The position numbers were made by a program, and so were the translations under genes. Shown piece by piece: positions 4,667 to 32,000 of a stretch of 64,000 bases of DNA. This DNA comes from Candidatus Omnitrophota bacterium (lineage in GTDB: Bacteria > Omnitrophota > Gorgyraeia > Duberdicusellales > Duberdicusellaceae), in contig JAFGCB010000023.1 of the NCBI GenBank assembly GCA_016932855.1, positions 4,825 to 68,824 on the forward strand. The letters run 5' to 3'. The notes under the pieces are model-generated. The model worked only from the letters and a program-made list of their open reading frames with translations. It ran no database searches and had not been told where the DNA came from. Positions within the stretch are counted from its first letter, which is position 1, and each line of letters begins with the position of its first letter.

Positions 4667-4712
4667 TTGCTATACTAAAGCGGATATTTAAGGCTGTCCA
4701 CCGCCTTAATTC

Positions 4713-4747
4713 TATACGCTACCCGCTATCCGCTATACGCTAAACAC
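4713..4747. repeat. Degenerate heptanucleotide tandem repeat (TAYMCGC)x5 in the intergenic/promoter region upstream of the GH gene
   Basis: tatacgc tacccgc tatccgc tatacgc taaacac, 56-92 nt upstream of the ATG at 4657. The last unit overlaps the stop codon of the 4747..5892 gene. Confidence 0.8.
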
Positions 4748-5892: not shown

Positions 5893-6033
5893 ACTCTGCC
5901 TCCTTTCGTGTTTTTAACATCTGGCTTAAGCTCCTAATCTTTGGATTATTTTGCTCACCCCCTTACCTATATAATATATAAACGCCTCCCAAATTGATAA
6001 TTTTAAATTGCTAATTTTACATTTTAACTTTTA

Positions 6034-8360: not shown

Positions 8361-8470
8361 CTATGATTTCTCTTCTCCTCTTCTTTCTTCTCCTCTTCTT
8401 TCTTCTCCGCGTCTTTCTATTGTTCTTCTTTCTTCTTTTCGTCTTTCTTCTCTTCGTCTTTCGACCTGCA
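8361..8470. repeat. About 110-nt polypyrimidine (CT-rich) tract with 15-nt periodicity, encoding the EERR-repeat tail of the MFS transporter
   Basis: ttctcctcttctttc repeated, with variants. The plus strand is almost pure C/T from 8361 to about 8470. Confidence 0.85.
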
Positions 8471-9980: not shown

Positions 9981-10147
9981 TAATTAGCTCCTTACTAATT
10001 CTAAAGTAAATAGTATTTTACTAATCAATGATAATGCGCATATTATAACAGAAAAAGCTATTGGCACAATATCATTTTCAAAACCCCTCATATGATTCAA
10101 TACTGAATTTACGGGCCTGCCTTAAGACAGGCCTTCTTATTCACAAA

Positions 10148-10981: not shown

Positions 10982-11865
10982 CAGGCTTGTTTAAAAAATT
11001 TAGAAACTCTGTTAAGCATAAAAGATATACAGACCAGGATAAAACCAAAAATAAGCGCCTGACAACAGGCATAGCCGAAGCGTCTGTACTTTATCATGGA
11101 AAATAAAATTCTTATAACCGGCACTTCCGTATGTCCTGCCGGGCCTCCTCTGGTCATGGCTAAGATAAGGGCAAACCCTTGCATTGTGCCTAAGATAGTT
11201 AAGATAACCACCAGCACAAAGACAGGTATCATCATCGGGACTGTAACATTAGTAAATCTTTTTAAGGCATCTGCGCCGTCAACAGTTGCGGCTTCATAGA
11301 GCTGGCGGGGAATAGTCTGTAAGCCCGCCAAAAGAATAATAAAAGCCCATCCGAATCCTTTCCAGCAATGAACTAAAGCTATGGCCGTAAGGGCGGTTGA
11401 GCTGTCGGAAAGCCAATCCCGGGCAAGATACCCTAAGCCTACCATAGAAAGCCAGTGGTTTAAAAGCCCGAAATCTCCGTTATAGATCCATTTCCAGACT
11501 AAACCTACGACTATCTCGGAAAGAATCGGGGGAAGAAAAAATATAACCCGGTACACCGAGCCGGCACGTATTGCCCGGTCACAGGCTAAAGCCAGCAATA
11601 AAGCTAAGAAATTCTGAAAAGTAAGAGCCCATAAGGTTATGTAGCCGGCTTGAGCCATGGAAGACCACCAGGCTTTGTCGTCAAAGATGACCTCCTTAAA
11701 GTGGGCAAAGCCTACGAACTTCATGGTCGGATCTATCCCGTTCCAGGAATGCATGCTTAAATTAAAGACCTTAAAGAAAGGGTAGATATAGAACACCGAG
11801 AAGATAATAAGCGCGGGTAATACGAATAAGAAATTTGTAAACTCTCTTGTGCCTTTTTTCATCAA
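10981..11865 (-). CDS. Sugar ABC transporter permease (MalF/UgpA-like)
   Basis: EAA loop YEAATVDGADALKRFTNVTVPMM. Multi-TM. 4-nt overlap with the substrate-binding protein gene. Confidence 0.85.
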   Translation of the reverse strand: MMKKGTREFTNFLFVLPALIIFSVFYIYPFFKVFNLSMHSWNGIDPTMKFVGFAHFKEVIFDDKAWWSSMAQAGYITLWALTFQNFLALLLALACDRAIRAGSVYRVIFFLPPILSEIVVGLVWKWIYNGDFGLLNHWLSMVGLGYLARDWLSDSSTALTAIALVHCWKGFGWAFIILLAGLQTIPRQLYEAATVDGADALKRFTNVTVPMMIPVFVLVVILTILGTMQGFALILAMTRGGPAGHTEVPVIRILFSMIKYRRFGYACCQALIFGFILVCISFMLNRVSKFFKQA

Positions 11866-13175
11866 TTCCGCCTTTGGATCTCTTTTTCCTTTATCCTCTG
11901 GACCTCTTCGACCAGCTCTTGGGCAGTCTTTTCGCCGATGATTATACTCTGGACACCTTTAGTAAAGGCCTCGATGACTGCCGGGTATTCCTGGAAAGGC
12001 CACATATTAGGATGAGTAATACTGTCGGAATCATCGGCAAACTCGGACAACTCTTTAGGTATGCCTGATAAAGCTTGCCTGTTGGAAGGCAAATTCTTAG
12101 TCTTGTTTACTAAAAATACCTGCTGTTCTTTATCAGTAAGCCACTTAAGAAACTCTACCGCCTCTTTCGAAAGAAACGACCTGGCGTTTACGTAGAAAGA
12201 GCTGCCGGCTCCGCCCCAGATCTTCATTGGATATGCATCAGATGCTTCGGGAGGAAGAATAACTGAATAATCCAGCTTGGGATTCATCCCCTGGTAGACA
12301 TTAACGCACCAGCTTCCGTTAAAAGCAAAAGCGACTTTTTCATTGGCAAAAAGCTGTTCAGCGTATTTATTATCCATAGTGACCACGCCGCTGGCCAGCC
12401 CCCCGCTATCGCGCAACTCTTCAAAAAGCTTAAATACCCTAAGCCAGTCACTGTCAGTGTAGGGAGCTTCTGCCTTTATCGTCTTTATGACTTTATCTTC
12501 TCCCATAATATTAAAGGCGTAATTAGAAACCATGCAATCAATCATCCAGGTCTCGGCCCAGCCGGAAACAAGCCCCTTAATGCCTTTTTCCTTTAGGGTC
12601 TTTAAATCGGCAATGAACTCCTCCCAGGCCTGGGGAGGTCTTTGAATGCCGGCTTGCCTAAGAAGCTTATTATTGCAGACCATTTGAATATTCATCAAAT
12701 CTATAGGTATGGCATAAGTGCCCTCGGTTACGCCGAAAGCATTGTCCTTCTCAAAAGAAGTGACTGCCAGGGCACTGGTAAAAAACCGGCTTTTCCACTC
12801 AGCCTCATTCTCTTCCAAATATGGCGTAAGATCCACAACATGCCCGGCCTTGATAAAGGAAGCAACATCTATTTTTTCGCCTAAAACACCGAATATATCA
12901 GATAAAGTCTTGGCCTGGGCTGCGGCAAGTATCTTCTGGGAATAGGAATCAGGAGGGCTAAAAAGCTCAAAATTTACTTTTATCCCGGTTAAATCTTCAT
13001 ATTTTTTAGATAATTCTTCGAAAGCTTCCTGACGGTCAGTCATCCAGTGCCAGACAACTATCCGGTCCTTCTTTACAGCTTTATCTTTAGAAGCACAGCC
13101 CCCAAAAATAAGCGTAAATGCTATAAAAACGCCTAATAAAAGCCTCATTATTTCTACCCTCTTAATCTTAGACAA
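11862..13175 (-). CDS. ABC transporter extracellular solute-binding lipoprotein (carbohydrate family)
   Basis: Lipobox LIFGGCAS after the signal peptide. Size and composition fit carbohydrate ABC binding proteins. Reads as an operon with the two permeases. Confidence 0.8.
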   Translation of the reverse strand: MSKIKRVEIMRLLLGVFIAFTLIFGGCASKDKAVKKDRIVVWHWMTDRQEAFEELSKKYEDLTGIKVNFELFSPPDSYSQKILAAAQAKTLSDIFGVLGEKIDVASFIKAGHVVDLTPYLEENEAEWKSRFFTSALAVTSFEKDNAFGVTEGTYAIPIDLMNIQMVCNNKLLRQAGIQRPPQAWEEFIADLKTLKEKGIKGLVSGWAETWMIDCMVSNYAFNIMGEDKVIKTIKAEAPYTDSDWLRVFKLFEELRDSGGLASGVVTMDNKYAEQLFANEKVAFAFNGSWCVNVYQGMNPKLDYSVILPPEASDAYPMKIWGGAGSSFYVNARSFLSKEAVEFLKWLTDKEQQVFLVNKTKNLPSNRQALSGIPKELSEFADDSDSITHPNMWPFQEYPAVIEAFTKGVQSIIIGEKTAQELVEEVQRIKEKEIQRRN

Positions 13176-13179
13176 TATA

Positions 13180-13260
13180 ATATAATATGAAGTTCCTTAA
13201 TATTATATATGGCAAAAGGACTTAGATTATACCATAAAGAAAAGTGAATATTCAATACCA
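13180..13260 (-). promoter_or_regulatory. Candidate promoter/RBS region for the ABC-transporter operon
   Basis: AT-rich, with TATAAT-like hexamers (tataatataat) on the minus strand and an AGAGGG RBS just upstream of the 13175 ATG. Confidence 0.3.
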
Positions 13261-13342
13261 AAATATGGGCCTAAAAAGCCTTCTAAACCGGCTTCCAAGG
13301 CTTGAATTTCAAGGTATTTTAAGAACTTTTCCTTAAATCCTG

Positions 13343-13708
13343 TTACTCGGCCTTATCCCGGAATAACCTGGACATGCCAAAAAGTTCAGGCTTATTCAGG
13401 TCCACGCCTAATCTCCAGTCTCCGGAAAATTGCCGCTCTACCCAGGCAACTCTTCCTTCCACTGTCAAAGGCTTCTTCTGGTCGGGAAAATGAAGCCATA
13501 TACGTAAAGGCGCTGCCTCGGGTATTCCTTCTTTGCTTACTATACCCAGTCCCTGAGCGCTTATATCGCAGGTTGAAGCCTGGGTAATTCTACCGTCCAT
13601 CAGGTCTAAACACCTTACAGGAAGATTGGCCTTAAACCTCTGAAACCGCCTTCTGTCTTCTTTTTCCTCAAACGCCGCTACTGACGCCATATTTATCACC
13701 TCCTTCAA
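13343..13708 (-). CDS. PilZ-domain protein (candidate c-di-GMP effector)
   Basis: RRRFQRF (RxxxR) and DISAQGLG (D/NxSxxG) motifs with PilZ spacing. GGAGG RBS upstream. Confidence 0.7.
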   Translation of the reverse strand: MKEVINMASVAAFEEKEDRRRFQRFKANLPVRCLDLMDGRITQASTCDISAQGLGIVSKEGIPEAAPLRIWLHFPDQKKPLTVEGRVAWVERQFSGDWRLGVDLNKPELFGMSRLFRDKAE

Positions 13709-13714
13709 CGACGA

Positions 13715-13749
13715 CTAGACTTACGGAGGTCGTAGACCGACGTAAGTCT
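13715..13749 (-). promoter_or_regulatory. Second hairpin (10-bp stem) directly upstream of the PilZ RBS
   Basis: tagacttacg ..15 nt incl. ggtcgtagacc.. cgtaagtcta. On the minus strand the sequence aggagg lies immediately 3' of it, then the PilZ ATG at 13708. Confidence 0.3.
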
Positions 13750-13763
13750 ATGTCGGAGTTGAA

Positions 13764-13788
13764 CCCTTGACATCGAAGATGTCAAGGG
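13764..13788 (-). terminator. Perfect 11-bp-stem/3-nt-loop hairpin overlapping the GIY-YIG gene stop codon (candidate terminator or attenuator)
   Basis: cccttgacatc gaa gatgtcaaggg. No clear U-tract follows on the minus strand. Confidence 0.3.
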
Positions 13789-14060
13789 CTAACATAAACT
13801 GACTTAGAAAATAAATTAATCATCCTCTCTATGGTTCTCTTCCTTGTCTTTCCGCCTTTAAATTGTCTTTCTCGTCTAAGGGCCTTCGATCGCGAATCAA
13901 ACTCCTCATAATAGACTAACTCTAGAGGCCGCCTATCCTTAGTAGATAAAACCTGGCCCTTTGAATGCCTATAAAGACGCTGGGTTAAATTGTTTGTATG
14001 ACCGTAATATTTCATGCCATCAGCGCATTGTAAAATATATAAATAATAAATTGATTTCAT
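13782..14060 (-). CDS. Small GIY-YIG nuclease-domain protein
   Basis: SIYYLYILQCADGMKYYGHTNNLTQRLYRH matches the GIY..YIG..R..H core, followed by a conserved E. 92 aa. Starts 26 nt after the giant-gene stop. Confidence 0.85.
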   Translation of the reverse strand: MKSIYYLYILQCADGMKYYGHTNNLTQRLYRHSKGQVLSTKDRRPLELVYYEEFDSRSKALRRERQFKGGKTRKRTIERMINLFSKSVYVSP

Positions 14061-14086
14061 AGCAAACTATTGCGGTTTTTCTTCCT

Positions 14087-17000
14087 TTACTTCATCCCCG
14101 GCACCCTCAATTCATCTCCCGGCCGGATTAAAGCAAAAAGATATTCCCGGCCATTCCTGGTCCTCGTCTCTATTTCTATCCCGTTAGCCTCGGCAATATC
14201 TCCGAAAGTAACTCCCTCAAAACTCTGAGCAATATCCCACAGAGTATCGCCTTTATTGACTGAATATTCCCTTGTATCGTACTGCGTACCGGGTACTGCG
14301 TACCGCGTTGAATTTAATACTCCACATTCGTCACCCGGCGCCTCCCTTAAAACTGCCTCAGGGGACAACCGACTAGTGATACCCGGTACACGATCAGACG
14401 CCAACGGCGAAATGAATTCTTGTTCAGTCCCCGGCACCCGGTCCGTTGCATTCTTTACAAAACTGCTTGAATCAATTTTGTAAACTTTGGACAGGGGTGA
14501 GCTGGAAATAACATTTGCCCCGTCAGCCGGACTAAATAACTGCTTAAGTTCCCACGGCAGATCGCCAAGGATATCTTTAATTAAAGATTCATTTATCTTC
14601 AAGAATTCTTCAACTCTCGGCTTTTCTTCATTTCGAAATTTCAAATACGCTTTTGATGGAGGCCAGACTAACTGATATATATTCTCCTCTTCTAGAACAG
14701 CTAAGTAATGCGTTACTCCCAACCCACCCCATCGAGGTGAAAAACATAACTGCTCTAACTGCTTTGCTTTAAGTTGCGGATAGTCATCGCGCAATCGAAA
14801 GACATTTTTTACTTCCAGGAATTCATGTAATAATACATATAGCCAATCCGAAGGTGTAAAATAAAAGTGGTCTCTTAGATTAAAACGCATACCCACAATA
14901 TTAATTATAGTACCTTTGGAAGCATCTACGAATTTAACTTTACAAATGGCTGGACCGGCTGGTGTTTCTGATAATAAATCACTCGAACTTGTGCCTTCTT
15001 CTTCTATTCTCTTTTTCTCTTGACGAATACGCTCCCTGTAATCAAAACCGTTCTCCTTTAACCTATCTAAGGTTAAAATAATCAATTTATTTAGTATTTC
15101 TGCTGTTACTTTAATAATTATTTCTTTATCTTCAACAGCAATTGATTTTCTTGTCTGAATTTTTCTATATGCAGTAAAATAGCTGTCCCATTCTTTTTCA
15201 GAAAATTCTAATTTTTCCCAGAGGCCCAATTCTGTTAATTCCTTACGTACCACCGGCGAGCTCATGGTTCGACTACCGCTCAACACTAGCCCTGAGCTTG
15301 TCGAAGGACTTCCCCCTTTCTTTACAAATCTGCTTGAAACAGATTTGTAAACTTTAAGAGGGGAGCTGACCATATTAGAAATACGTATATAAATATCCAA
15401 AATCTTGGTAGGCACATTTTCTGTAAATCCCTTTTCTGAACTAAACAGAAAATAAGCTTGATGCAGACTGTGATCCCATAAATCTAACAACTCCAAAGTC
15501 TCCTCTTTTGCTTCACTAAAAATAACAAACCCGTATTGACTTTCAACAAGTTGTCCCGCTTTATTTTTATCTAAAAAATATTTTATGTCCGCTAAAGGAT
15601 AACCTAGAATAAACCCTTGTAATATATCGCGGTCAAACCCGGGTTGTTTATGCGAATTCAAGGCAGTAACTATAATATCTATTTTACTCTTTACCTCTTC
15701 AGATTGACGCACTCTAGCGGTAAGAAAGTCGAGTTGCCCCTTAGTAATAAGGTCGTTTTCTACCAAGAAAGAACCCTCGTATTTTAATCTCGAAATAATG
15801 TTAGGCCATAAGATAATCTCGTTATTGGTAAAAACTAACCCTAAATTCTCCTGAGCTTCCGGAATGTTGCTTATCTCGCAAGCTAACTGCACTATATCTA
15901 TATCAGGCTCATAAGTATATTTTATATATGCGGACTTCACGCCTAAAAAAACAGACAAAGCATCCGGATACAATAACTGCTGTTTAGCTTTGTCACTAAG
16001 CTTAGTGAAGGCTCTCTTAACAATTAACGACCTTTCCTGCAAGGCACTATGCGCCGGCGAGCTGATTGGTTTCTTCTCAACCGGATAAATAGAAGCGTCC
16101 CCTTTTTCACCATCTGTCATTATTTGTTCCCGTAAAGCCTGCGGGTTTAGTTTCCACCTCCTCAATTGAGCGTATAAGGACTCTTTAGATATACCCAATA
16201 TCCCGGCTGCCTGTGTAAAATTACCCTTTGCTTTAAAAATAGCCGCAAATAATCTCTGCTTTCGAAGCTCCTCTATCTTTATACCGTAATATCTTAATTT
16301 TCGATATACTTCGTTTTTGTGCCATCCCAATTCAGCAGCTACCCGGGGGATATCACACTCCATTCTGATTACAAGCTCTTTTAATTCATCTGCCTGGCTT
16401 TTTTTAGTCGGCCGGGAATTTTGAGCTTCTTCTTTTATTCCGTATTTATCTAACTTTCTATAAAAAGTCTCAATGGGCATTCCTAATATCCTTGCTGCCT
16501 TCCTAAAGTTATAATTTACATTAATAAGAGCTTTTTCAATCATCTGCCTTTCCCGTTCTTCAAGGGTATCCCATACTACAGGAACTTGCAGTTTTTGATT
16601 ATTATTTATAATTAAAATGTCTGGAATTCCGCCGGACCAGCTGTATATCTGGATCTTAAAGCTAAGTATGGTTTTTGTAACCGCGTACCAGCCTTTTGAA
16701 ATCTCTTTTATTCTACCGCTTGCGATAATTTCTAATGTCCTATCCTTACTCCTTTTATCGGCTATAAGAAAAGGTATGTTTAATAAAGCATGAAGGCACA
16801 GTCCGGAATAACATCTTATAGCTCCGGCCTCAACTGCTGCCCTTATAGCGGTACCCATACGCTGTCCGGAAAGCGCGTTCTCCCGAAAATAACCTCTCAT
16901 CTGCGGAATGGACTTATCCAACATATTCAATACCTCGGAACCCGATAGAACATCTTGGGAAGTTTTTAAAGGAAATTCTCTAAGGACCGCCTTTTTTAAC

Positions 17001-20000
17001 TCATCAGTAAATACATTCCCTTGCAGGTTAAAACATTCGGGATTTTGACTTAAAAACCGTATTTGCTCATCCAAAGTTAATTCCTGCATTGCTTGAGCAA
17101 ATTCTTTCTCCTGAACAATACAGATTTTTCTTTGCTGCCATTCTCCCTTATCAAATAAAAGTCTTTCCTCCTTAGTCTCGTTTAATGTATATATACTTCC
17201 GACTTCGCTTAAATTAGAAAAATATAAATACCCTTTGCTACCCATAATAAATGCTTTACAGCCAAGACTAAGTCTGGTAAAGGCCGCGGGCATAATAATG
17301 TTCTCCCTTACCAGCATAGAAATGATGGATTCCATGCGAAAATCATTACCTCTAAAGACAACTATGGACTCCTGCCTTTTACCCCTTAAGCCTAGGTTCT
17401 TAATCCAGAACATACCTTTATCGATACGGGCGGGCGCGATAACTTCCGAGTCTTTTTCTGCCCATAACAGTTCTGCTGCCTCAATGCAAGATACTCCTCG
17501 GCTACTCCCTTTGAAGCTTCTAACTTTCAATCCGCTATTGTAAGGAAACCGGAAACGCGCGCCGCCGGTTTTCGGACATCCGATGCAAAAATCATTCTTA
17601 ATTAATTGCTTTATCTGCCAAGCCTGAGGAGGAGCGTTTCTTACCAAAATATCGTCAAGAAAGGTTTTTAAATAAATATTTTCTTCAGCGCCTACGCTTT
17701 TTTCCAAACAAGTTTCATATCTTGCAAGAACATAACCCTTATGGTATACAAAGATTTCATCTAGGGTGCGTAAGAAAAATAGGTAATTGGCATTCCTATT
17801 CTTTTTAATTGACCTACCCAAGGTCTTTCTCTCAGCTAAAACAGTAAAAAGATTTCTTCCGAAACCATCATCTTGATCCATCCTTACAACTAAATCCTTA
17901 ATAAGAGTATAATTTCTACTGTGTAAATGAGGTATTAAGAATGTAATGGGCCTAAGCTTAATACTACTTGTTTTTCGAATCCCTTCGATACGGGTATTCC
18001 TGACTCTCTCGGCAATAACCCTAAGTTGATCTTCTCTAGTTCCAAAATGATTTCTTAAAACCCTGTTTACAAAAGTTTTTGCCGGCGGATGAGAAAATAA
18101 CTCGTCACCGCTTAATATGCCGTGTTCTGAAAAAGATACACCGCCTTTTGTAGACTCGCAGAACACAAAATCTCCTTCGGAGTAAACAATCAAAAGAAAA
18201 TTGCCTTCATCTTTTATATCGATCAATGCCTTTACCGCGTATTCTCTTTCTTTATCCGGAGCGTCAAAAGAAATACTTACAGCCCGGCCCCTTAGAGCTT
18301 CTCCGAAATTAAGACTGCCCCCTAACTCAGATCCGAAAACTATACTTCCGCTATCCATTGCATATTTTTTAACATCCTCTGGACTAAGCCCCTTTCTGAT
18401 AAATCCCCTCACAGCGCTTCTGTATACTTGTAATAAACCTGGATCTATTGATACCGGCGAACTTAAACCATCAGACACATGCCTTGCCTCAGAGTTGTTT
18501 TTCCTTACATCACATTCAAAGCGAACAGTAACCAGACCTCTTTGCGATTGAATACCTAGATGGGCGGCTTGATCACCAATTAACTTGTTAAGTTCTGCGA
18601 GGCTCCCATACATTAAGGTTTTGCCACGGCCATATTGCCTGAAAAACTCAGATTTGCCGGTCTTAGCGTATAAAAGCAAGAGCTCCACGGGATCGGGTAT
18701 TTTAGCAGGGTCAAATTCACCCTGATTTTCAATGGTAAACACAAGATGGCCTTGCCGTCCAAGCTTACCTGGTGTAAAAAAGTAGCTCATCACTACATCA
18801 CCTCTGTCGTCTTTTCTGTGTTTTATCGCGTTCTCAATCATTTCACCTAGTATATTTTCTATGGGCCCGGCAACATCATCACCAAACACTCTATTGAGGC
18901 TATTTCTAAATGCTACCTGCCAAAGAGCACTCACTGCAGTCATATCTTTTTTAGGAGCTTCGTTAATCACTATTCTTCTCTTTATTGAAATTTTTCCTTC
19001 TTCCGACTCCCGACCCAAGACTAAAGACTCAAAACCTTCAACTGGAGAATTTAAAGAACGCCTGATTTTTTCCAGTTCTCTGCCCGCCCGGTCGAGATAA
19101 CCACTGTTTCTCAAATCAGACAGTGCTTTCTGGTAATAAATTTCGTTGACTTCAAACGTACCTTCATACTCATCGCATTCATCGTCGTAAGGTTCTATAT
19201 CCCTTTTTCCCCATTTCTCCGTCAATACCACGTATTGAAAAGGCATATCTTCGTTCTTCCGGAACATTCCCCCAAGGATAGCTTCCTCGCCCAAAGACCT
19301 CAAGAAATATATCAACATCGCGGAGTTAGCCAAGCACGTATCCAGCCTAAAACTCCTGATGACAGCTTCGATATGCAAAACATCGATTGTATCAACCGAA
19401 GAACTAGCCGATATTAGACTTCTTGTTTTCGCATTATAACTATTTCCCAGTTCTCTAAAAGCGGCTCCAACCAAAGAGTCTCTGTTTTTACAATAGAAGA
19501 CTCTAGCCGGATCAACGCCTAACCTTTCGGCAACTAGTTTTTGAGTTATCCGCCTTACTTTTTGAGACTTAAAATATTCTATTGCCTGCAGGATTCTACC
19601 GCCGATAAGAAGGCTATATACTGCTTTCTCCACCTCGGTATTAGCTAGGCGGCGTAAGCGAAGGGTCTCATGGCTTACCCCCGCTTTGTTACAAATTGTA
19701 GTTATACTAATCGGTTTTACTGTCGTAAGCCAAAGTATTTCCACTGCCTTAAGGATAAAAAAATCGCTTTTATTGCCGGTAGGCAATGTATCCATCACTT
19801 TACCAACCTCAGGATTGGCACGCCTGCGCCGGCTAACAGTAGATTCAGAAAGCCCGGTTCTTTGAGTAACTAAAGCTTGACCGCCTGGCATGCCTTCAGA
19901 TGCAATATATGCCGCTTCCTTAATAATAAGACGACCGGCTCTGGTAAATTTAATAACCTGGCTATTTACGGAACCCTTGCGATTTGTACCGTCCAGTGGC

Positions 20001-23000
20001 GAGCTCAACCCATCTTCCGACACCCCAAGCTCGATGCCCGTAACTGCCTCTTCTCCAATAGAATCTGAGCTTTGATTATTTCCTGGAAATTTCCTAAAAC
20101 CCCATAAGACCGCTGGTACATATAGAGCCACACCTAACAAAAATCCTTCTATGCTTGCATGCCATGGTAAATAAAATAAGTTATAGGAAATACCAATCGG
20201 CAATAATATCTTCGCCCAATTTCTTACTTTCGTCTTCTCTGCCGAGTTAGGTTTCTTATATGTCATATAAAGTGAATAGACCATAAAAGGAGGGCCTAAG
20301 GCTCCTACAAGAAGGTTTTGGGTAGTAAAACTTAAGGGAAGAGAGAATATTATGCTCAAACCTATACCATAATACGGCCAAGCTGTGATAATTGTTTTAC
20401 GCATGTTAGGAATCTTGTCTTTTAATATAGTTACAACCCCTCTGTTTTTATTTTCCGGTAAGCTTTTCTCAACTAAACTTTGCATAGAAAAAATAAGAAA
20501 AAGAGAGACTACTGCTGTAGTAATCTGATCAGCACCGCCAAGCAAAACGCAAGGCAAAGAACTTTTTAGCCATATATTATAAGTACAAGGCCAAAACCAA
20601 CCAAAGAAAAAGAAGGTTAATCCAATAGTAGCACCTAATCCCTTAAAATTAAACCTCTTTAGATTTAACAGCTGGCCGGAAATATCTGCTATGGCTCTAA
20701 AAGTAAGAAAACTAACAAAGGTCCTCAAATTAACAAACCCTATAAATCCTGGAATATTCACTGAAGCAAATAATTCACCTAATGGTATTTTAGGCACGTA
20801 CTGTAAAAGATAGAATGAAATACCTATAACTGCAGTTGTTATAGCAACTACGGGGATAGTTTTACGTAATCGCGTTAGCTGGTTAGAATTATAGTCAATT
20901 TTTTTAAGGGGCGAGCTGATGATTCTCTCGGTTTGCGGTTTGCGGTTTGCGGTTTGCGTAAAGGATTCATTTCCGGAAATTGGGCTTGAGGCATTTTTGT
21001 TTTTATCCCAAAACTTAGATTTTATTGGTGAAGAAGTTAATCCTTTTATGGATTTGGCAGGGCTTGATAAAGATATGCTTATTGGCGGAGCATTGCCAGA
21101 TAAACCTCTTTTAACAAACCAATTATTTAAAGGAGAGCTGATTATTCTTGTTTTATTTGATAGCTTTTTTCGGCTAAACACATAAGGAACTTCTACTACA
21201 TCACCCTCACTTAGCGTCTCATGGTTTAAATCATCACCATCTCTACCAATGGACGCATCTAAAGAATAACTTCTTAATATAGGAAACTTCTTTTTAATTG
21301 CATAGCTTTCTCTGGCTAAAGACGCCCAAGCACCTCTACGAAGAGCTTTTTCAAGCGGAACAGTAAAATCGTAATCCATTACTGCCTGATAAAATCCGAC
21401 TAATATAAAGGCTCTTCTATCTTCCGGTCTAAAACATCTATACCTATATGCACTCATCCAAACAAGTCTTTCTATAAGGCTTCTATGAATTCTACATAAA
21501 ACATCAAAAGCTCTGTGTTCGTTTTGCTTAATAAGTAAAATTAATTGGTGCGATTGCTTACTTAATATTCTATCAAAATTAAGAAAAGGATTTTCTAAGA
21601 TGGATGTATCTATTTTTCTACTGCGTAGAGAATTATTCAACTTCTCGATTCTAAGTTGCCTTGTCCTAGGAGAAGGAGATTTTTTCTTCAAAGAAACCCA
21701 ATCAGCATTATCTTCGAGATTAACAAACCATATACCTGAAAATTCACGAGTTCCTCCGCCGCCGCCACCAAAGAGAGTAACTTTTTGCCCTGCTAATTTC
21801 TTGTCGTGTAAATCGTAAACAATTGTATTAGGACTATGATTAAACTTACTTGCCACTTCAGATGTAGTTAAGTAACTAGGATTAGTATAGATTTCATACT
21901 GCCTGTGGATTTCTTTTACGATTTTAAGAAAATCATATATATCTATTCCCTTAAATCTAGACTCAGAAGAACTTAAGCTTAGTAACGTATCTTTTAAGAT
22001 ATTTCTTCGCTTGCCGAATTCTTGATTTAGTATTTCAGAAAGTATGTAACGTTTAGGGTTTTTCACCAATTTATAAAAAACTGCCTTATAAATATCGCAA
22101 ACACCATATTCATTTATAGCTTTCTTAGCTTGCGGCAAAGGGATAATCAAAGCCTGTTCTTTATTCAAACTATTCAAGGCATCTACTGATATGTACCATC
22201 TTCTGCCCGACTTCTTTACTCCCAATCTTTTCCTCATCGAACGTTTTCTGTTTAACATATTAGAAAAAACGCTTCTGTTAACTCCCAGCACCAAGGCAGC
22301 TCTAGAAAGAGTAACAAACCCAGAAGCATTATCATCCTTAACAACTTCTGGCTGTAGAGCGCCTATCCACTCTTGATCAATTGATAAATTTCTTATAACA
22401 GCCTCCAAAACATTAATTCTTTGCCCCTTAACCCTAACCCAAAAATTCTTGTTATACCTCTTATCTGGTATACTTCTTAATGGTGAACTAACTATAGATG
22501 CTTCATCGAATAACTCAGCGGCCGTATATCCTGCTTCAAAGATTATTTTTTTTCTAGTAGAGCTAATACGTTTTGCTAATATTTCTTCTGGCTGGGATAA
22601 AGATCCTTCTCCGTCAAGCTCATGAACTAACCATTTATCCATAAGCGCTTTTGTTTTGCTAGAAACTTCATTTTCAAATCTCTTTAGCACTCCTTCAAAA
22701 TAAAAACCATTTAAGTTATCTAGAATTCTAACACGCAAATCTCTATTCAAATCCTTTAGAAAATCTATAAGAGCAAACTCTAACCAAAGAGGCGCTCTCC
22801 TAGCTCTAGTTCTTAGAGTATTAATAACCATAGATACCCAATCAAAGGCAATCCAATCTTTACTACCAATAACCTTATGTATAAGCGCATTAAGCGCGAC
22901 AGTTTCTTTATCTTCTCTAAAATAAATTTTCTCTAATAACGACATAAGCTCTTCTTTCTTTTGCGATTTATTCCAGCTGGGATTAAACAACATAGACATA

Positions 23001-26000
23001 TATCCACAAACAAGCTTAAATATGACTTCAACCGCGCTTAAATAAGCTTTGGATTCTTTCCCCGGGTTAACAATGTGTTTAATAAACTGTATCTTACTCT
23101 CTAGGATTTCAATTAATACTAAAGTATGCTCTCCAGATTCAGAATTTATATTTAAATTATTAATTATGTAATTTAAATAGTGCTCGCCACCTGAACCACT
23201 ATAATCTAATAAAAGATCTCTTAAAATACCTCTTTGGGTTTTTACTCCATTACCAAAAATAGCAACTGGTGTAGTTAAATCAAAAAATTCTTGCTCTCCT
23301 ATATCATCACTAGCTATGTCCGGCATGCCCTCTTCGTTGGTCCAAAGCATTGCTTTCTCTAACATAGACTTACCAAGATAGTACTTTCTTCTTTTACCTC
23401 TAACATTTAAAGACAACCGTTTCTTTACAAGAGGAATCCCTTTTATCATTAAATCAGGACCAAACCGTGCCCTAAGCTCCTCTAAAGATATTGTTAAACT
23501 TGCACAGTTAAAAACAATTTCTTCAGTTATTGGTTGGTGCACTGTAATGCGCGAAAACTTCTTTGGGCTTCCTTGCTGACCAAATTCACTAGCATTTTCT
23601 GAAAGTTCATTCCTTTGCTTATACTCAAGCAATATAACCTCTGACCCATTAACAGCAAAATTCGCCTCTAATAAGCTCCCTTCTTTAAGGCTAACTGATA
23701 CAGGATAAACTTTACAGAAATTAATAAGATTCCAAGTCTTATTGTGCCTTACGGGAAGATGTCTAACTCTTACCCGCTTAGCCCCAGCCTCTTTTAACAA
23801 CTTAAACATCTTTTTGCTTTTAATGTTAACTGTGCCTGGATTCTCTCTGCTGATAGTCATAAGTAGTTTCCATTCGTTAGAACTATTGGTTGTATATTCA
23901 ACGCGAATAAAATCATCGAAAGTTGTAAAATCAGAATCTACCCCAAGAGAAACTACTCTTATCGGCCAGCCATCTATTAACCAAACAAGCAAACGAGCGT
24001 TACTAAATGGTGTAAAGAAACCTTCATCTCTACCAGCATCTATAAGAAATTTTCCGTTTGAATCAGTTGGCACTCCGGCAACAAACCCAGTCCAAGCTAT
24101 GCGTCGTAAATAAGAAATACTGCTAAAATCTAATTTATAGATGTTTCCTTCGCGATCATACACTTCAAAAGCAATCTCTAACCTTGGATTGCTTCGATCA
24201 AAGGCAGACTTTGACATAGCCCTTAAAAGTGGGGGTTGACCATTGTCTTTTTTCGCTAAGAATAACCGAACTGGCCCAGGAGATTGATGATACACTCCGT
24301 AGTTATGATTAAAAAGCCAAACGGTACTGACTGAAGTCGACTTACTAGCAACCGTAGTTGATTTTCCTTCAAGTACCAATAAATCATGTTCTCCAAAAAA
24401 TTTATTTAAGTAAAACTTTAACAACGCCACTGCTTCTTTTTTCTTTTTTCCTGCATATTGATAATCCCGCTGATGATAAAGAATATTTCCCTTCATGTCT
24501 AGAATTAAATGGTGCCCCCTGGCAACCAAATCTTGTCGCTTAGATACCTCGCCTCTTCTTCCTATTCCGGAATAATTAGAACGTGGACGATTATGATGGG
24601 TATCTTTTAAAACCTTAATGAAATTTCTCTCCCAAGGTTTAACGTCAAACTTATCAGATAGAATATTCTTGGCGCTTGTCGTAACTATCGGACTAGAAGC
24701 TTTCTCGCTTTTATCGCTAAATAATTTCGCTGTAAGTTTTTCATAATCATCCGGCCTAGGATTTACAAAATGCCAATTCATAACAGCTAAGATATCATCT
24801 GCCTGCTCTTCGGTAGCACCAACAAATACTACACCCAACGTATCCCCGATCTCTAAGTCGCGTAATGCTGAAAAGCCTTGCCTTTCAATATTTTTAAATA
24901 CAATCTCTGAAGATTCAGGAAAGACTGTCTTACACGACAGAAGAGTTATTTTTATACCCCATTTTATTTTTATCCTTTCTGATAAGTAACCTAAGCCCTG
25001 GGATATGCAGAAACGTTCATCGGTTAAATCCCTTTCCACTGTAATCTGCCTAAATTCTTGCTGCTCTAAATCTAAAGTTACAAAAGTGTTTGAATCACTT
25101 TTGTAACTTTGTGCCAGGGGCGAGCTGATTGGCTTGCCATCAACGAAATAAATAGAAGGGTCCCTTTTTTCCAATCTATTAAGCACTTCGCCTGCCCTTT
25201 TGACTACAGATTGGGGCAAATCTCCACTTAATCTCCATATCTTATTAAAAGACGCTAATCTCTCTATTTTTGCTGTACAAAAGCAATTACCTATATCTTC
25301 CAACACAGCAAGCGAAAATAGGATAACTTCAGAGCTCGTATCATCCAAAGCTTTACGGTAGAATACATTTCTTACTCTACTCAGGTAAATTTGCCTATCT
25401 GCATCCGGCAATTTATTATAAACATTCCATATAACCTGATATAACTTTAACCTTCTTTGACTTGTAAGTATAGCTTTGCCGTAATGGAATTTTTCATGCG
25501 AAACTTCTATGCCTTCAGCTACCGTTAACAATAACTCTAGGGCTTGCCGGCAAGGATGCTCTAAAGAATCATTAAGGTAAAGATCTACTACCTCCCATTT
25601 AGACTTTTCTAAAGAAGGCAGAAATACTTTCCCCATAACTTCAGTAAAATCACCTAATTCTGTCTGTATGCTGGTTAGCTTAAAGACCAAAGACTCTGAA
25701 ACCTTTTGGCCCAAAAAACTATCAACTATTATTCCTAACCAGGCAACAAAATCTTTTCTTAAAGAGCTGTCTATTGGAAGCTGCTCTATTTTATTGGACA
25801 AAGAAATGGCTAACTTGCAGAAATATAGCTTTTCAACAAGGTTAACATCTTTCTTTCCGGAATTAGATTTTATGCCGGAAAAAACCTTATTTAGTTCCGG
25901 CTCATCTTGAGCAATAATCACAGCTTCTTTCATACACATAAAAGACAAACGAATAAAAAAGTTCTTAAAATCTACTGCTTTTAGTAGGTGCTCTATTAAA

Positions 26001-29000
26001 CTTAACCTCTCCTCCTGCGATTTAGCCATAGAGCCTGCTACCTGCAAGCATCTATCGGCCATAGATAAATCACTTGCTGAATACGCTTTATCGGAATAAA
26101 CAAAAGCTATTAGTTTATCCGCTACCTTGTCTCTGTATATCTTCTCTAATTCTAATCCCTTCAACACCTTAAGAGCCTTAATTCTTATGAGCCTATCTGC
26201 TGGTTTATATGCATACTTGTTAAATCCCAATATACCTAAACTTCCTGCTATGGCCTCAAAACAGCCGAACAATATTTCCCTACTATAACCAGTAAGCCAC
26301 CCTATAAGCCTGGCTTCCTTAAAAGCAGGTAATAATGAGTCTTGAATAACAAGCAGGCTCAATTCTCCTAAAATGGCTACTCCGGATAAAACAATAAAAG
26401 TTTTACATATGATTTGCGTGAGCCTATCCAGCGATTGAATAAAACGGGAACGAATTAAGAGGCTTGAGCCCTTATCAAGATAATCTAAATAAAAAAGCAT
26501 TTTGGCGTAATTCGTCGCTCTCTTTACCACCGCTTCTTTACGGTAAACTTTATTACCTAAATTATTTGTAATTGAATTGACTATTCTTTCTATGTTTCCA
26601 TCGTAAATCACAGACAGTCTGTTTAAACCGAGCTTGTTTACATACCCCTTAAGCGTAGAATCGGAAGTTTTCTCATTCGCAGTCCAACCCGTCCTTAAAA
26701 TATCAACAAGGGTAAAAAAGTTTGCAAGAACCTCGAGTATGTTTTGGTTTTTAAGATACGGGAGCTCTCTTTTTACATACTCACTATTCGAACTAAGTAG
26801 CCCCGCTAATTGATCTTTTCCGTCTAAAGCATTATTCTTCTTGAGCAGGGGCGAGCTGATTGGTTTATCCTCGAGTGAGAAAATAAAAGCGTCCCCTTTT
26901 ACTGAACTTAATTTAATCGGGCTTGAAAACTTACCTTCGGAACTTACCTGTGCTTGCTCAATTGTAACCTCTGTCAATAATACAAGCTCACCGAATTCCT
27001 TGAATCCCCTCAAGGAACCGATATCGCGGAGCTGGCCAAAATGATTATCCTTTTCGTCTTTTGCTCTCCGGTTAAATTTAGTCCTGGGTTCAAAAACAAG
27101 AAAAATCACATTATTGCCGATAAGCCTTGCATAACCCTTGAAAGACCTTTTGGCAAAATAAAGACGCTTAACATCTGTGCCCCAAGCTGGCGGAATTTTA
27201 TGCCTGTAGTGCGGTTTATCAGGGCCTTCAATAAAACTTTTTACCTTTACTTCAATCTCTCTAATCGGAAATTTCTCTAGGACTTTCGCTTCAGTCCAAT
27301 TGCTATCAATAAACCAAACCTTGTATTCCTGCCTAATAGGCTGCTTTCGAGTTATTTCTTTTTTAGCCTTATACGAAGTCTCTAGATTTTTCTTATAATC
27401 CAGCAATGTCTTGTTATTTGCAATGTGATAGTTAAGCTTAAGCCAATTACTTATCACCTCAAACACAGTCTTAGAAAAAATATCAGCAACCTCCTCAACT
27501 TCTATCTCTTTCCCAAGCGCCTGGATTAAGCTCGTATAAGAAGGTGCTTCGCTGATTATCTCCTGCATTTTATCCTCAGTTATCCTTTTTAGCTTAGCTT
27601 TGACTTTCGCCTGCGCAGCCTTTTCTTCCCTGCTTACTACATGAATAACTGCGCTTTTGGGACTGCCTATGACAAATTCTGGCTTCTTTATAGTGGGCAT
27701 TATTGAAGCAGGCTTTACCTTAATAGACGACTTTATTAAAGGTCCCTCGCAACTTTTATTTTTACGAAGCATAAAAATTCTGATGAGCACTATTCCTGCG
27801 GCAAGGCCGCCGATTGATAAAATAAGTATTGGCCAAGTCTTAGAATCAGCGTGCTTCTCAGGCCCTTTCTCTTCCTGCATTAACCTAGCTTGTTCTGCTA
27901 CTAATGGTATTCTGTCCAACAAAATCGCCAACGATCCGATCGCTTGAGCAGGATTTTCTTTAAAAAGGTTGATATATTCCTTCATATATGAATACCTAAT
28001 ACAAAGTAAACATCCCTGCTCAGCGGTCATAACCATTCTCTCCCCGTCTATAACAAGACTCTGGTCATTGACAATCACAACCGCGAGGAGTTTCTTCAAA
28101 GATGCAGGCTTAGCTATAAGAATTGCCTCGGAGAGTAATTCAATCGGGTTTAGCTCTTTTACATATTGCTGATGTTCCTGGAACATTTGCTTAAGCACCG
28201 GACCGATAGGAAGACCTGTTGTCTTGCCGAAATAATTTTCCTTTTTGCTTCCTAAAAGCCAGTAATGATTCTCAATGCTGGAATCAGGCAAAATAATAAG
28301 TTGCTTAGCCTTTTTTACTGCGCCATCCTTACTCACCTGAATATTCAAAGTAGAAGGCGCAAGCAGGATAAGTGCTGATACTATGGTCAAAACCCTTGTA
28401 CAGCCTTTAATAGACGGGAAATGTTTGGCTCTAAACGAAGAGAGCGGCGAGCTGATCCCGTTATTAGCGGATAGTAGATTATCGTTATGAGCTTCACTGA
28501 ACGCTAAACGTCCTTCAACAAGTTTATGATTATCTACAGAAGGACCCTGAGTATTCCCGAAGGGCTCTTCGCTAACCGCTAAAGAAGCCACCGGCGAGCT
28601 TAAACCTTTATCGTCGTGCGTACCGCTCGTCCCGTGTCCCGAGACTTCGGGATTTACGGGACGTACTGCGTACCGTGAAGGTAAGCCGATAAAGGCAATT
28701 TTTCCACCAAGCCAAACAAATAATCCTAAGCCCGTAAGAAGACCGGGTAGTGGAATACAGCCGTACATACCGGACAAAAACCATTCCACAAGAGGACCAA
28801 AGCTAAGGGCAAATAAAATAGTGACTCCTAAAAAGCCAACAGTTTTATTCAATATCCTTGGATGGCTTAAGCTTTCCCAGATTAATCCGCCTATCCCAAC
28901 CGCCGTAGCTATATCAGCTATGTTTATAGAATAAGGAGAATTATATATATTCTTAAATATCTCCAGGTAATCTACCTGATAACCCAACGAAAGTGTTATC

Positions 29001-32000
29001 AAATGCGCAGTAAGCCCGCCTACAAGCAATCCGAATATCGCTTTTGCCTTGCCCTGGCCGATAAATTCCTTAACCTTATTCACCGTCCAAGCTGAAATAA
29101 TTAATACCCCGGCTGTAGCCAGAACATCGGCCAAGCTGATATGGCCTGAAAAAATATGGGTATTTATCTCAAGCCAGTTCTTTGCTAGTCCAAAATGCGG
29201 TTTGAATAAAGCTACCGTTAATTTTGTAATTAAATCAACACTTGCAACGACTGCAGCTATTACTCCGCCCTTTCTTATCCATCCATTGCTTCCAACCGGA
29301 CTGCTATCTATTGAGCTTGTCACCGGACTGCTGGATCTAGACTTAACTGCGATAGAAAAGTCGGTTTGTTTTTGACCTTCTTGAAAATAAGTAACTCCGC
29401 TATGAAACTCATCTTTGGACCAGAAGATTGCGTCGCCTTCGCCTTCATTGTATATAAATAGGCCGCCGTCTTTATTAGTGTTGCGAATAATCTTCCGGAC
29501 GAGCCCCTGATTAAGCTGAGGCTCTTTTCTAAAGAAATCCGTCAAACCGCGCATGGAAATAATGTCGTATTTTTCTTTAAAAACAAGGGTCCATTGCTCT
29601 TTACCAAATAAATCAACATATCTGTATTCAAAGCTAAAATCAATGCTTTGGTGTTTCCTGTTCTCTTTAAAAAGCCGGGCCTCTTGAAGATGCCACAAAG
29701 ATACATCATGCCCGATTACATCAACTTTCCAGTTTATCTTATCGATATCACCTTCTTTAAGTAGTGAATTTTTAATTACCCTCTCAAAGAATGAAAACTC
29801 ATAAAATTTAATTTTTCTATCATTTCCCACCCCGATAATTTTCAGCGATATATTAAAATCATTCCGTTCTTTCTTTATTTTTATTAGTTGCCCGATAAAT
29901 TTTTCAAGTTTCTTATCAGTTCTTGCCTCAATAGGCCAGGCATCACCGGACCAGCCTTTATTTAGTGCTAACCCCAGCCTTAAACCCAATAAAGTTAGCT
30001 CTCTCTCAATTTCTTCACCAGAAGGCTGCATAAGAAAATCCCTATATTCCTGCAAGTTAGCTTTTTGAGAATTCTCAGCTTTTAGTAACAGATAAGGCAG
30101 AAAATGGACTTCTGAAAACTCAGGAAAATATTCCACGCTTCTTCGAACATTGCCTGAATCTACAAGATACTCCATAATCTCTCTGGCTGTCTTTTCTTCT
30201 TCTGTAAGCGTCCTGCCTAAGTCAGCCCATAATATGTCCTTACCTAGCGGCGAGCTTATACGGCACGGATATCTGTAAACTATCGTAGCGGCGATGATAT
30301 TTTCGGATATGATTAGCTTGCCTATAGCAATTTTTTCTGACGGACTCTGCAAGACAACAGCAAAACGAGCCCCCGGTCTTGCCTGCCTCAGTAATACCAT
30401 TCTTAAATAGTGGTTTAAATCACTCTCTGATGGACAGCAATCAGAAAGAGTAAACCAATTCCTGGGACGACCCTTAAGTTCAAAGTTCCTAGAAGAAATA
30501 ATGCCGATAGAGTCGATTTTTCCCTCACGATACAATGAAAGCACTTTTCTAACAACCTCATCCAGACTTAAATTACATACGGGCTTACCCTGTTCCCCAT
30601 ACAATTTCAACGGCGAGCTTACCCCTTTTCCTAGAGTTACAAAAGTGTTTGAATCACTTTTGTAACTTTGTGCCAGGGGCGAGCTGATTGGCTTGCCATC
30701 AACGAAATAAATATAAGCGTCCCCATCTGTTACATAACTGCTTGAATAAGTTATGTAACAGATAGCGCACATAGTCAACCTTCCAGCAAACTTTGTTAAT
30801 GCGGTCTTAAGCGGGCTACTTACACTAATGCCTGTAATATCTACAATAACAGTAGCCATACCTATCTCCGTATCAGGTAAAACATCTTGATGCGGCTTTG
30901 TATAGCTAACGGTAAAACCGAAACGTATCTTGTCCTTGGCATACCCCGGAGTGGTACCGTAAAAAGCCGCTAACATCGCTATTTGACCACGTAACTCTGA
31001 ATCCAGGAAATCTCTGAAAAGCAGTGGATTATCTTCAACCTCAAAAACAAGCGGTGGTTCCGGCTCAAATAAATCATCTTTATACCTGTAGATAATCCGC
31101 ATTACATGGAACGGTTTTCTGCGATAGGAATCAAATAATTCTTGGACTATTCTTCCAAATGTAAAATCTGCTTCTGGAATACCGCTTTTACCACGCAGCT
31201 TCATAGGAGAGCTAGCGAAGGAATCTTTTAAGTATTTCGGCTTTAGCGGCTCCTCAGACCTACTAAGTGACGAGCTGATTGGCTTGCCATCAACGAAATA
31301 AATAGAAGCGTCCCCTTTTTTAAGCGAAATTCCGGTATCTATCTTTCTGCAGACAGCCCAGGAACTTGCATAACTCAATGAAGCTTGTCCTTGTGAAATT
31401 AATAGGCCCTCCCAGGAATTACTACTTAAGCCTAGCCTAGCCAGGTGCGACAGCTGAAAATACTTCTTAACAACAGCAACATCGAATTTGATGCCGGTCA
31501 TAAGCATAAACCCTTGCTCAGAGACATCAGTGTTAAGCTTGCTCCAAAACTTCTCCTCTTCAGCCATTACGCCCAGCCAGCCGGGGAAACTGACAAACGT
31601 CAAATCAACTTCTTCATCATCTCTAACAGCTTCCCGGCAAAAATAATCTAAGGGACGTAAGGCCAAATAAATCTGTCTGTTTGAACTTACTCTGACCGTC
31701 AAAACGCAAGTTTCTGTTTTCGTAAGCTTGTCTTTTATATTGGACGGTGTCTCAATAAGCTCAAAACCATAACCACTGGAAATAAGCGCGGGGAAATTCT
31801 GCCAGTCTTTACATATAGGGTCTACTAAAATAATCTTCTCAAGACTAGGAAACAAATTGACGATTATCCGCAAGTAATCTTTTCTCGGACCGTGCGCTAC
31901 TGACAAGGCGAGCTTGGGCTGAAACTTCTCTTTCTCAAAGAATCCCTGCAAGGATTGGTACCAGGGAAAATCAGAAAAGAAGTCCCAAATATAACCGCTA

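Follow-up and report, generated by a model that had tools for sequence, protein, structure and literature searches.

Can a short repeat of seven nucleotides (nt), lying deep inside a giant gene, act as a frameshift switch? The question is raised by a 64,000-nt stretch of contig JAFGCB010000023.1 from a Candidatus Omnitrophota bacterium (hereafter the window), in which the unit CGGTTTG is repeated four times within an open reading frame (ORF) for a protein of 16,626 amino acids (aa). Roles in attaching to prey and attacking cell walls have been proposed for the giant genes of Omnitrophota. The first-pass annotation of the window had taken the repeat for a potential switch whose slippage by one unit would truncate the last ~2,300 residues. 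If this were true, a repeat that removes the anchoring end of a giant protein would be the first hint of variation in such genes; we consider it unlikely here. The repeat itself is as annotated, a perfect tract of 4.3 copies in frame with the giant gene. The available sequence comparisons, however, do not support a working on/off switch. The reading that we prefer, and to which we would give a probability of about 60%, is that the tract is a frame-preserving product of slippage that added the peptide ANRKPQT to a linker, that it is frame-locked at four units, and that it is at most a low-rate hotspot for truncation.

Slippage and the reading frame of the giant gene

At 20929-20958 of the window, CGGTTTG is repeated four times and followed by CG (period 7, 4.3 copies, 100% matches). 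The tract is antisense to the giant ORF, which runs on the minus strand, and it is translated in frame as TQTANRKPQT. A chance origin is hardly credible, given that a three-unit CGGTTTG pattern with up to two mismatches matches the window at this site alone and in none of 100 dinucleotide-preserving shuffles. When perfect repeats of at least three copies are collected from the window for periods of 6 and above, only period 7 is represented, by this tract and by a second one at 4597-4630. An assembly artefact deserves no more credence and is effectively refuted by an independent k=31 assembly of SRR13394437 that reproduces the tract exactly; in addition, the ORF is open through the tract, and similar tracts are found across assemblies from many different assemblers.

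The tract and the parts of the giant gene that bear on its slippage are the following:

14087..63967, minus strand: giant ORF of 16,626 aa with a GTG start, a single uninterrupted open frame
20929..20958, minus strand: heptanucleotide tract, (CGCAAAC)x4.3 on the coding strand and (CGGTTTG)x4.3 on the plus strand, codons 14337-14347 of the giant ORF
20981..20989, minus strand: SSP junction motif, residues 14327-14329 (SSPI at 14327-14330, in ASSPIS), seven residues upstream of the tract
20906..20917, minus strand: SSPL junction motif, residues 14351-14354 (in ERIISSPLKK), three residues downstream of the tract
20048..20860, minus strand: hydrophobic, transmembrane-like cluster, residues ~14370-14640, from a Kyte-Doolittle scan (first segment, 14370-14388, scoring 2.02)
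18626..18865, minus strand: weak stretch resembling HATPase_c (GHKL), residues 15035-15114 (E 0.0048; 17.8 bits against a Pfam cut-off of 26.4)
16442..16567, minus strand: HTH_8 (Fis-type) domain, residues 15801-15842 (E 2.5e-16)
14177..14266, minus strand: LysM domain, residues 16568-16597 (E 3.7e-8)

The tract begins at codon 14337 of 16,626, that is, 86% of the way along the ORF, and is followed by 2,279 residues, in good agreement with the ~2,300 that a one-unit slip had been expected to remove. In simulated slips, changes of -14, -7, +7 and +14 nt give proteins of 14,349, 14,361, 14,356 and 14,368 aa, respectively. The stops are reached 13-32 codons after a slip of one or two units, and the tails specific to the frameshift are RESSARPLKKLTIILTS or ENHQLAP. 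Changes of 21 nt in either direction keep the frame, again in silico, and removal of 21 nt leaves a plausible linker, GNESFTQTERIISSPL. The first module lost on a one- or two-unit slip is the hydrophobic cluster that starts at residue 14370, and the HTH modules and LysM are lost with it. The first-pass annotation had listed a third transmembrane cluster, a GHKL/HTH module and a LysM anchor as the parts removed; the cluster, HTH_8 and LysM are indeed downstream of the tract, but the GHKL assignment is weak, its match falling below the cut-off.

In two respects the tract has the makings of a true contingency locus, at which slipped-strand mispairing would toggle between the full-length, LysM-anchored protein and a form of ~14,350 aa, with selection keeping the repeat perfect. 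It is a perfect tandem repeat within an ORF whose unit is not divisible by three, and in silico no full-length protein is made once one unit, or two, have been added or removed. A second product, however, finds no obvious outlet. Neither shifted frame continues past the tract; both stop within 32 codons, and the alternative in-frame continuation after a -7 or +7 shift that had been envisaged is not there. Restart is no better served, since the first in-frame ATG 3′ of the tract is codon 14495 and the nearer GTG and TTG codons are without an obvious ribosome-binding site. At 86% of a 50-kb gene, moreover, an OFF (out-of-frame) allele would be costly, and the position is atypical for the class to which the tract belongs.

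The surrounding RNA is unstructured (z +0.5), and neither a complementary partner within 300 nt of the tract nor an inverted repeat was found when these were sought. We also considered a programmed -1 ribosomal frameshift site and rejected it: CGCAAAC does not have the form X XXY YYZ, the alternative frames stop within 32 codons, and there is no stable downstream structure.

Stability of the tract and of its relatives

A second sequence of the same population is available in Logan contig SRR13394437_393888 (L162; 16,666 nt, k=31 assembly), which corresponds without gaps to window positions 20981..8440. Over 12,542 nt the two differ by one single-nucleotide polymorphism, at window position 13598 (G vs A, minus strand, in the PilZ gene), and they are therefore independent samples of one population. 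The Logan contig carries the same 4.3 units and is unbroken at the tract, which lies within an uninterrupted 3,672-aa fragment of the gene. SRR13394437 thus holds this population at a depth sufficient for a 16.7-kb assembly across 20929-20958. The same allele in two independent sequences is a point against a contingency locus.

Relatives of the tract were collected from a comparison set of 80 loci from GTDB and 80 from JGI metagenomes (L002-L161), each surrounding an orthologue of the 773-aa glycosidase that is encoded in the window. With duplicates removed the set comprises ~2.25 Mb in ~150 loci, the GTDB loci amounting to 1.28 Mb and the JGI contigs to 1.09 Mb; the loci were chosen by their glycosidase orthologues, so the 5′ ends of these genes are over-sampled. 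Among perfect repeats of at least three copies in the GTDB loci, 16 have a period of 7, three a period of 8 and one a period of 6, with none at periods 9-21, and the dominance of period 7 is replicated in the JGI contigs. Tandem Repeats Finder reports 35 (GTDB) and 45 (JGI) period-7 tracts, with period 8 in second place and periods 6 and 9 nearly absent. The lengths of perfect tracts are bimodal: a chance tail extends to ~20 nt, and a mode of 30-34 nt (about four units) is followed by a few tracts of up to 39 nt. Period-8 tracts likewise have about four units, and this number at both periods fits 1+3 units rather than a fixed length in bases. The possibility that the upper limit of 34 nt is an assembler artefact was rejected: values of k as high as 141-191 went into the assemblies, the reading frame is intact in the ORFs, and perfect tracts in the JGI contigs reach 39 nt.

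The units themselves are diverse, with 91 canonical units among 123 tracts; TTTTGCA, TGCCATA, TTTTCTG and TAGCGTA recur in different genes and genomes. Position is far less varied. Of 113 non-redundant period-7 tracts, 73 (65%) fall within codons 1-60 of an ORF that is at least 120 aa long, and these as a rule encode part of a signal peptide (its n-, h- or c-region). A further 31 are noncoding, and most of them precede a start by no more than ~90 nt. Four are C-terminal. Five are internal, and only three of these truly so: one at 2099 in L045 and the two tracts of the giant gene. When the 5′ ends of the glycosidase genes are set aside, noncoding DNA (290 kb) has 34 tracts, N-terminal coding DNA (285 kb) has 15 and the other coding DNA (1.67 Mb) has six. 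Perfect tracts of at least 21 nt are found 35 times in coding and twice in noncoding DNA, one of the two noncoding cases being probably coding across an assembly gap. Both the dominance of periods 7 and 8 and the concentration of perfect tracts in coding DNA speak for a contingency function.

The tract at 20929-20958 has the form of this class (period 7, ~3.4-5.6 units, few or no mismatches, and in frame within coding DNA), and lies outside its usual position in the first 60 codons or within ~90 nt upstream of a start. It is thus a typical member by form and an atypical one by position. The suggestion that heptamer slippage might be general in the organism is borne out for the tracts, which extend to the phylum, and is not supported for their use as switches. 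Throughout the phylum, heptamer tracts of four units seem to build up signal peptides or to decorate them, and they bear on the evolution of signal peptides, on the preference for period 7 in bacterial repeats, and on how gene callers and assemblers handle these genomes. In the literature searched we found no description of a phylum-wide class of four-unit heptamers, and two publications on the giant genes of Omnitrophota make no mention of heptamers, frameshifts or phase variation.

One member of the class shares its whole sequence with the tract of the giant gene. The 30-mer at 9955-9984 of L116, CGCAAACCGCAAACCGCAAACCGCAAACCG, is identical to that of the window and encodes part of the signal-peptide c-region of a glycosidase (IANRKPQTANRDLFAQ).

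In the available strain comparisons the short tracts do not change. In strain pairs at least 99.6% identical, all seven comparable tracts of 4-5 units are invariant. The sole strain-level length polymorphism found is in a GGTAATN array, with ~8 units (55 nt) at 1532-1586 of L086 and 7 units (48 nt) at 2718-2766 of L087, in contigs that are 99.7% identical; the array is degenerate and intergenic, lying between SBP (substrate-binding protein) and 23S_rRNA_IVP genes. This one-unit difference, which taken alone speaks for contingency, indicates that slippage occurs in the lineage, but is visible only in a longer array. The glycosidase orthologues provide a test of the class as a whole, their 5′ regions holding ~58 heptamer tracts across ~150 non-redundant loci. 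An in-frame ATG and a signal peptide are present in 155 of 157 complete orthologues and the other two have TTG starts, so that OFF alleles number 0 of 157; this is a class-level test, an orthologue of the giant gene having not been found.

How does this compare with heptanucleotide repeats that are known to switch? By mechanism the closest is neuO of E. coli K1 (phage CUS-3), which undergoes translational phase variation through (AAGACTC)n, with 3-53 units and, in one survey, 66% of complete genomes OFF (PMC13001214). A single culture contained alleles of 20, 21 and 22 units, and each three units add a 7-residue peptide (PMC13001214). As in the giant gene, a 7-nt unit lies in coding sequence and the frame is set by the number of units modulo 3. 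The neuO tract, however, is at the 5′ end of its gene, whereas that of the giant gene begins at codon 14337 of 16,626 and so is not a 5′ tract; and against the 3-53 units and 66% OFF of neuO, the giant-gene tract has four units and one allele in two sequences, with no OFF allele in its class.

In position the best parallel is the large adhesin gene hmw1A of H. influenzae PittAA, in which a mid-ORF (AATTTTG)14 repeat has been observed in a frameshifted allele; the 7-bp promoter repeats of hmw1A and hmw2A have 13-38 units (PMC2651432). Here too a heptanucleotide repeat lies in the middle of a very large ORF and a change in length is a frameshift, which makes hmw1A a precedent for a contingency locus at such a site. 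It has 14 units and a frameshifted allele, whereas the giant-gene tract has four and no variant allele was seen. With four units the tract is at the low end of what proven heptanucleotide switches show (3-53 for neuO, 13-38 for hmw), and against these benchmarks the Omnitrophota tracts look short and stable.

Among phase-variable outer-membrane proteins, repeats in the signal peptide (CTCTT in opa of Neisseria, CT in Helicobacter) are long and highly variable, with many alleles OFF. Two tracts of the window, at 4597-4630 and 3402-3432, share this position, being non-triplet repeats within the signal peptides of secreted proteins, and it is a classical position for phase variation; the giant-gene tract is not in a signal peptide.

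The genomic pattern most resembles that of the heptamer families of other bacteria. Heptameric simple sequence repeats are over-represented in bacteria (Mrazek 2007 as cited in PMC4692102), and the families include GGGAATC in Xanthomonas, GGGGAYT in Nostoc, the STRR of Calothrix and TAACTGA in Beggiatoaceae (PMC4692102). The same source reports that most heptamer arrays of Xanthomonas have four units and that a polymerase footprint has been proposed to explain the preference for 7 nt (PMC4692102). The families are like the Omnitrophota tracts in that period 7 is favoured over its neighbours and, in Xanthomonas, in the four-unit mode; they differ in that each reuses one unit genome-wide and is mainly intergenic, whereas Omnitrophota has ~90 units, mostly in the first 60 codons. 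The unit CGGTTTG occurs at a single site in the window, and the tract is thus no member of a fixed-unit family.

A survey of long Omnitrophota genes found short exact tandem repeats in 17% of them and judged these 'short, locally stable tandems' (bioRxiv 10.64898/2026.06.07.730766). This judgement of stability matches our own, and the survey makes no mention of a 7-nt period, a four-unit mode or a concentration at the 5′ ends of genes (bioRxiv 10.64898/2026.06.07.730766).

Taken with the shortness of the tract, its single allele, the invariance of its seven counterparts and the lack of OFF alleles where 66% are OFF for neuO, its position leads us to regard a contingency locus as unlikely, and the frameshift switch proposed at first pass is, on this indirect evidence, not supported.

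Origin of the tract in a linker rich in SSP motifs

The surroundings of the tract are polar and contain five SSP motifs in 80 residues. The giant protein as a whole has 62 SSP motifs where 4.5 would be expected; the next residue is most often one of L, I, V, A or M, and the typical site is at apparent junctions between modules. SSP could be a motif for processing, modification or recombination at junctions. SSP is also often found within longer strings that recur in the giant protein, such as DASIYFVDGKPISSPL and RIISSPL. The first-pass annotation had placed TQTANRKPQT in a linker immediately after an ISSPL junction. Both the peptide and the linker stand; the order does not, as the tract precedes RIISSPL in the protein.

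Homologues of this region are scarce. A search of residues 13801-14700 against 5.8 billion proteins gave no homologue at E <= 1e-3, the C-terminal 1,977 aa gave one marginal match covering 7% of the query, and tblastn against the 160 Omnitrophota loci gave three weak domain-level matches and no orthologous site. The exact flanks of the tract, with 2 to ~9 units allowed between them, had no match in JGI metagenome contigs or viral contigs. Long Omnitrophota proteins are reported to be mostly unique in sequence (bioRxiv 10.64898/2026.06.07.730766), with which the lack of a homologue around the tract agrees.

We infer that the tract originated by slippage, that it slips at a low rate, and that truncated forms are selected against. 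The ancestral sequence may have been ...ESF-TQT-ERIISSPL..., containing one copy of the unit plus two bases, CGCAAACCG. Addition of three units (21 nt) to this seed would have inserted ANRKPQT, at a site that, as a polar linker of low complexity between two SSP junction motifs, probably tolerated the insert. Because 7 is not divisible by three, only net changes of three units are frame-neutral, and the tract is locked at 1+3 units; the same rule, applied to coding DNA in general, explains the 1+3 mode for both 7-nt and 8-nt periods. One- or two-unit slips would still arise at a low rate, and the last membrane cluster, the HTH modules and LysM would all be missing from the resulting proteins of ~14,350 aa. 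Such forms would be deleterious or rare variants under purifying selection rather than a regulated state. Few tracts are internal, and those that persist do so only at sites where seven extra residues can be accommodated, as in SSP-rich linkers.

Other tracts bear traces of how they arose. In orthologous tracts the same base is changed in every unit (TGCCATA in L062 and L075, TGCGATA in L070), and in one clade the counterparts in L030 and L039 of a perfect L038 tract are degenerate. The giant gene has a second tract of its own, in the linker ahead of LysM:

14278..14308, minus strand: second, degenerate heptamer tract of the giant gene, of ABAB pattern (period 14 perfect, period 7 79%), encoding TRYAVPGTQYD

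The ABAB pattern, the concerted change of units and the contrast between L038 and its relatives together point to growth and homogenisation in place by slippage. The first two of these tell against the idea that the 30-nt tract was inserted whole by a templated or mobile process. That idea draws on the 30-nt identity with L116, on the recurrence of TTTTGCA, TGCCATA, TTTTCTG and TAGCGTA in different genes and genomes, and on the tracts that flank small 23S_rRNA_IVP genes, which look as if inserted between operon genes. But the flanks of the two identical 30-mers are unrelated, and the other recurrent units differ in their boundaries and lengths. Moreover, a 21-mer is shared by only 9 of 6,328 tract pairs, near the expectation from ~1,170 unit classes plus orthology. 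Insertion of the tract is very improbable, and mobile inserts were rejected as the main explanation on the grounds of unrelated flanks and near-chance sharing of units.

It is also conceivable that the tract is kept for itself, either as a TQTANRKPQT spacer between processing or junction motifs or as an unstructured nucleic-acid segment used in translation or mRNA handling. Its place exactly between two SSP motifs, in an SSP-dense region, would suit a spacer, for which, however, a perfect nucleotide repeat is unnecessary. The unstructured RNA around it (z +0.5) would suit the second version, and the stable hairpins formed by paired tracts elsewhere imply that some tracts probably act at the level of RNA or DNA; yet this tract has neither a complementary partner within 300 nt nor an inverted repeat, and ~90 different units argue against a sequence-specific binder. 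In L116 the identical 30-mer codes for a stretch of a signal-peptide c-region, which is in favour of a role of this kind; against it, no homologue of the region was found that would show conservation. We consider such a role improbable.

Several observations weigh against the frame-locked slippage product that we prefer, or against a purely neutral picture of the tracts. (i) Consensus assemblies are blind to minority alleles, and slippage is active in the lineage, as the 7-nt polymorphism between strains 99.7% identical attests. (ii) Four identical units imply a recent origin or continuing homogenisation, so that slippage is not a thing of the distant past. (iii) To reach four units in the middle of a gene takes either one 21-nt step or out-of-frame intermediates, and the second route means that truncated forms were temporarily viable. 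(iv) The confinement of perfect tracts to coding DNA (35 vs 2) is not predicted by neutral birth and decay, under which noncoding DNA should hold no fewer of them, and this argues for selection or a local mutational mechanism, at least for the members at 5′ ends. (v) There are almost no tracts of period 6 or 9, for which each step would be neutral for the frame. (vi) Some tracts form near-reverse-complement pairs with very stable hairpins, which a neutral picture does not explain. (vii) An identical 30-mer is present in an unrelated gene of another Omnitrophota genome (L116, 9955-9984). The class-level points among these suggest that the 5′-end tracts are under selection or owe their presence to a local mechanism, and that a contingency reading is alive for the class; the giant-gene tract has neither partner nor structure, so these points bear less on it.

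In its strongest form, such a reading would make the tracts a phylum-wide system of short, frame-locked repeats of 7 (and 8) nt, kept perfect by selection, concentrated in the 5′ coding ends of genes for secreted proteins, often arranged as hairpin-forming complementary pairs, and used as low-frequency switches or regulators of translation. The giant-gene tract would then allow lineages to shed the C-terminal membrane, HTH and LysM module. This is a speculative proposal, which we would count as unlikely.

The glycosidase locus and paired tracts in related loci

The giant protein is a mosaic that includes an ARMT1-like phosphatase, ribose-5-phosphate isomerase A, HTH_17, HTH_8 and LysM domains, and three hydrophobic clusters. 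After the giant gene come genes for GIY-YIG and PilZ proteins, an ABC sugar-uptake system, an MFS transporter, two GH72/GH2-like glycosidases, a TPR protein and a ROK regulator, a neighbourhood that matches the one described beside giant genes of Omnitrophota (bioRxiv 10.1101/2023.11.21.568195). Relatives of the 773-aa glycosidase are all from Omnitrophota, the best at 66-67% amino acid identity. Anywhere in the 64-kb window, no Rfam family reaches its gathering score.

The first-pass annotation had noted a 7-nt repeat of the same type in the glycosidase locus. There are in fact four tracts at that locus, besides the second tract of the giant gene, which is more than it mentioned:

4597..4630, minus strand: perfect (TTTTGCA)x4.9, encoding FAFCILHFAFC in frame, the signal-peptide h-region of a GH72-like protein (ORF 3440..4657)
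3402..3432, minus strand: (GTCAAAA)x4.4 with 91% matches, encoding KSKVKSQKSK in frame, the charged signal-peptide n-region of the TPR protein (ORF 1819..3447)
4712..4750, no strand assigned: degenerate heptamer tract with unit CTATACG on the plus strand, intergenic, upstream of the gene for the GH72-like protein
5991..6033, no strand assigned: AT-rich degenerate tract of period 7/14, intergenic, between the 773-aa glycosidase gene and a 381-aa gene

Two further Logan contigs of SRR13394437 (L001 and L163) end within the 34-nt tract at 4597-4630, at 4602 and 4624. They overlap by 23 nt, one unit short of the k-1 of 30, and none of the simple allele models tried gives these ends. Unlike this tract, those of 30 and 31 nt are passed unbroken by contigs. 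An apparent assembly problem at a tract is seen in L064 (8701-8870), where a perfect (CAGTCAA)x4.6 tract is directly followed by a scaffold gap (10 N) with copies of a 19-nt string on its two sides; joining the 19-nt duplicates restores an in-frame signal peptide with two tracts.

At the 3′ end of the MFS transporter gene (8371-8462), a 15-nt and a 30-nt repeat give rise to an arginine- and glutamate-rich tail, ERRREERRKEERRTIERRGEERRGEERRGEEKS. Charged tails of this kind precede the glycosidase gene in several related loci.

In several genes the tracts of the n-region and the h-region of one signal peptide are near reverse complements (e.g., CAGAAGA and TTTTCTG). Paired tracts are found at the following places:

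L071, 4253-4331: hairpin of -42.5 kcal/mol (z -7.6)
L018, 9872-10015: hairpin of -67.9 kcal/mol (z -7.0)
L098, 3239-3328: hairpin with z -4.5
L059, 9939-10027: hairpin with z -4.9
L070, 9529-9636: three tracts, A-B-A′, with a fold of z -1.3 that is not significant

The hairpins of paired tracts could pair in several registers. In L070, tract B is complementary to either A at ~16 of 21 positions, which is near the maximum for shuffled units.

The small genes for 23S rRNA-intervening-sequence proteins (23S_rRNA_IVP; PF05635, E ~1e-30) are interposed among the genes of operons, either immediately ahead of the glycosidase or following the SBP gene, and heptamer tracts immediately precede them:

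L070, 9640-9995: 23S_rRNA_IVP gene
L086, 1658-1975: 23S_rRNA_IVP gene
L075, ~2240-2596: 23S_rRNA_IVP gene

In L070 the insertion of this gene appears to have duplicated the start of the glycosidase gene, its heptamer tract included.

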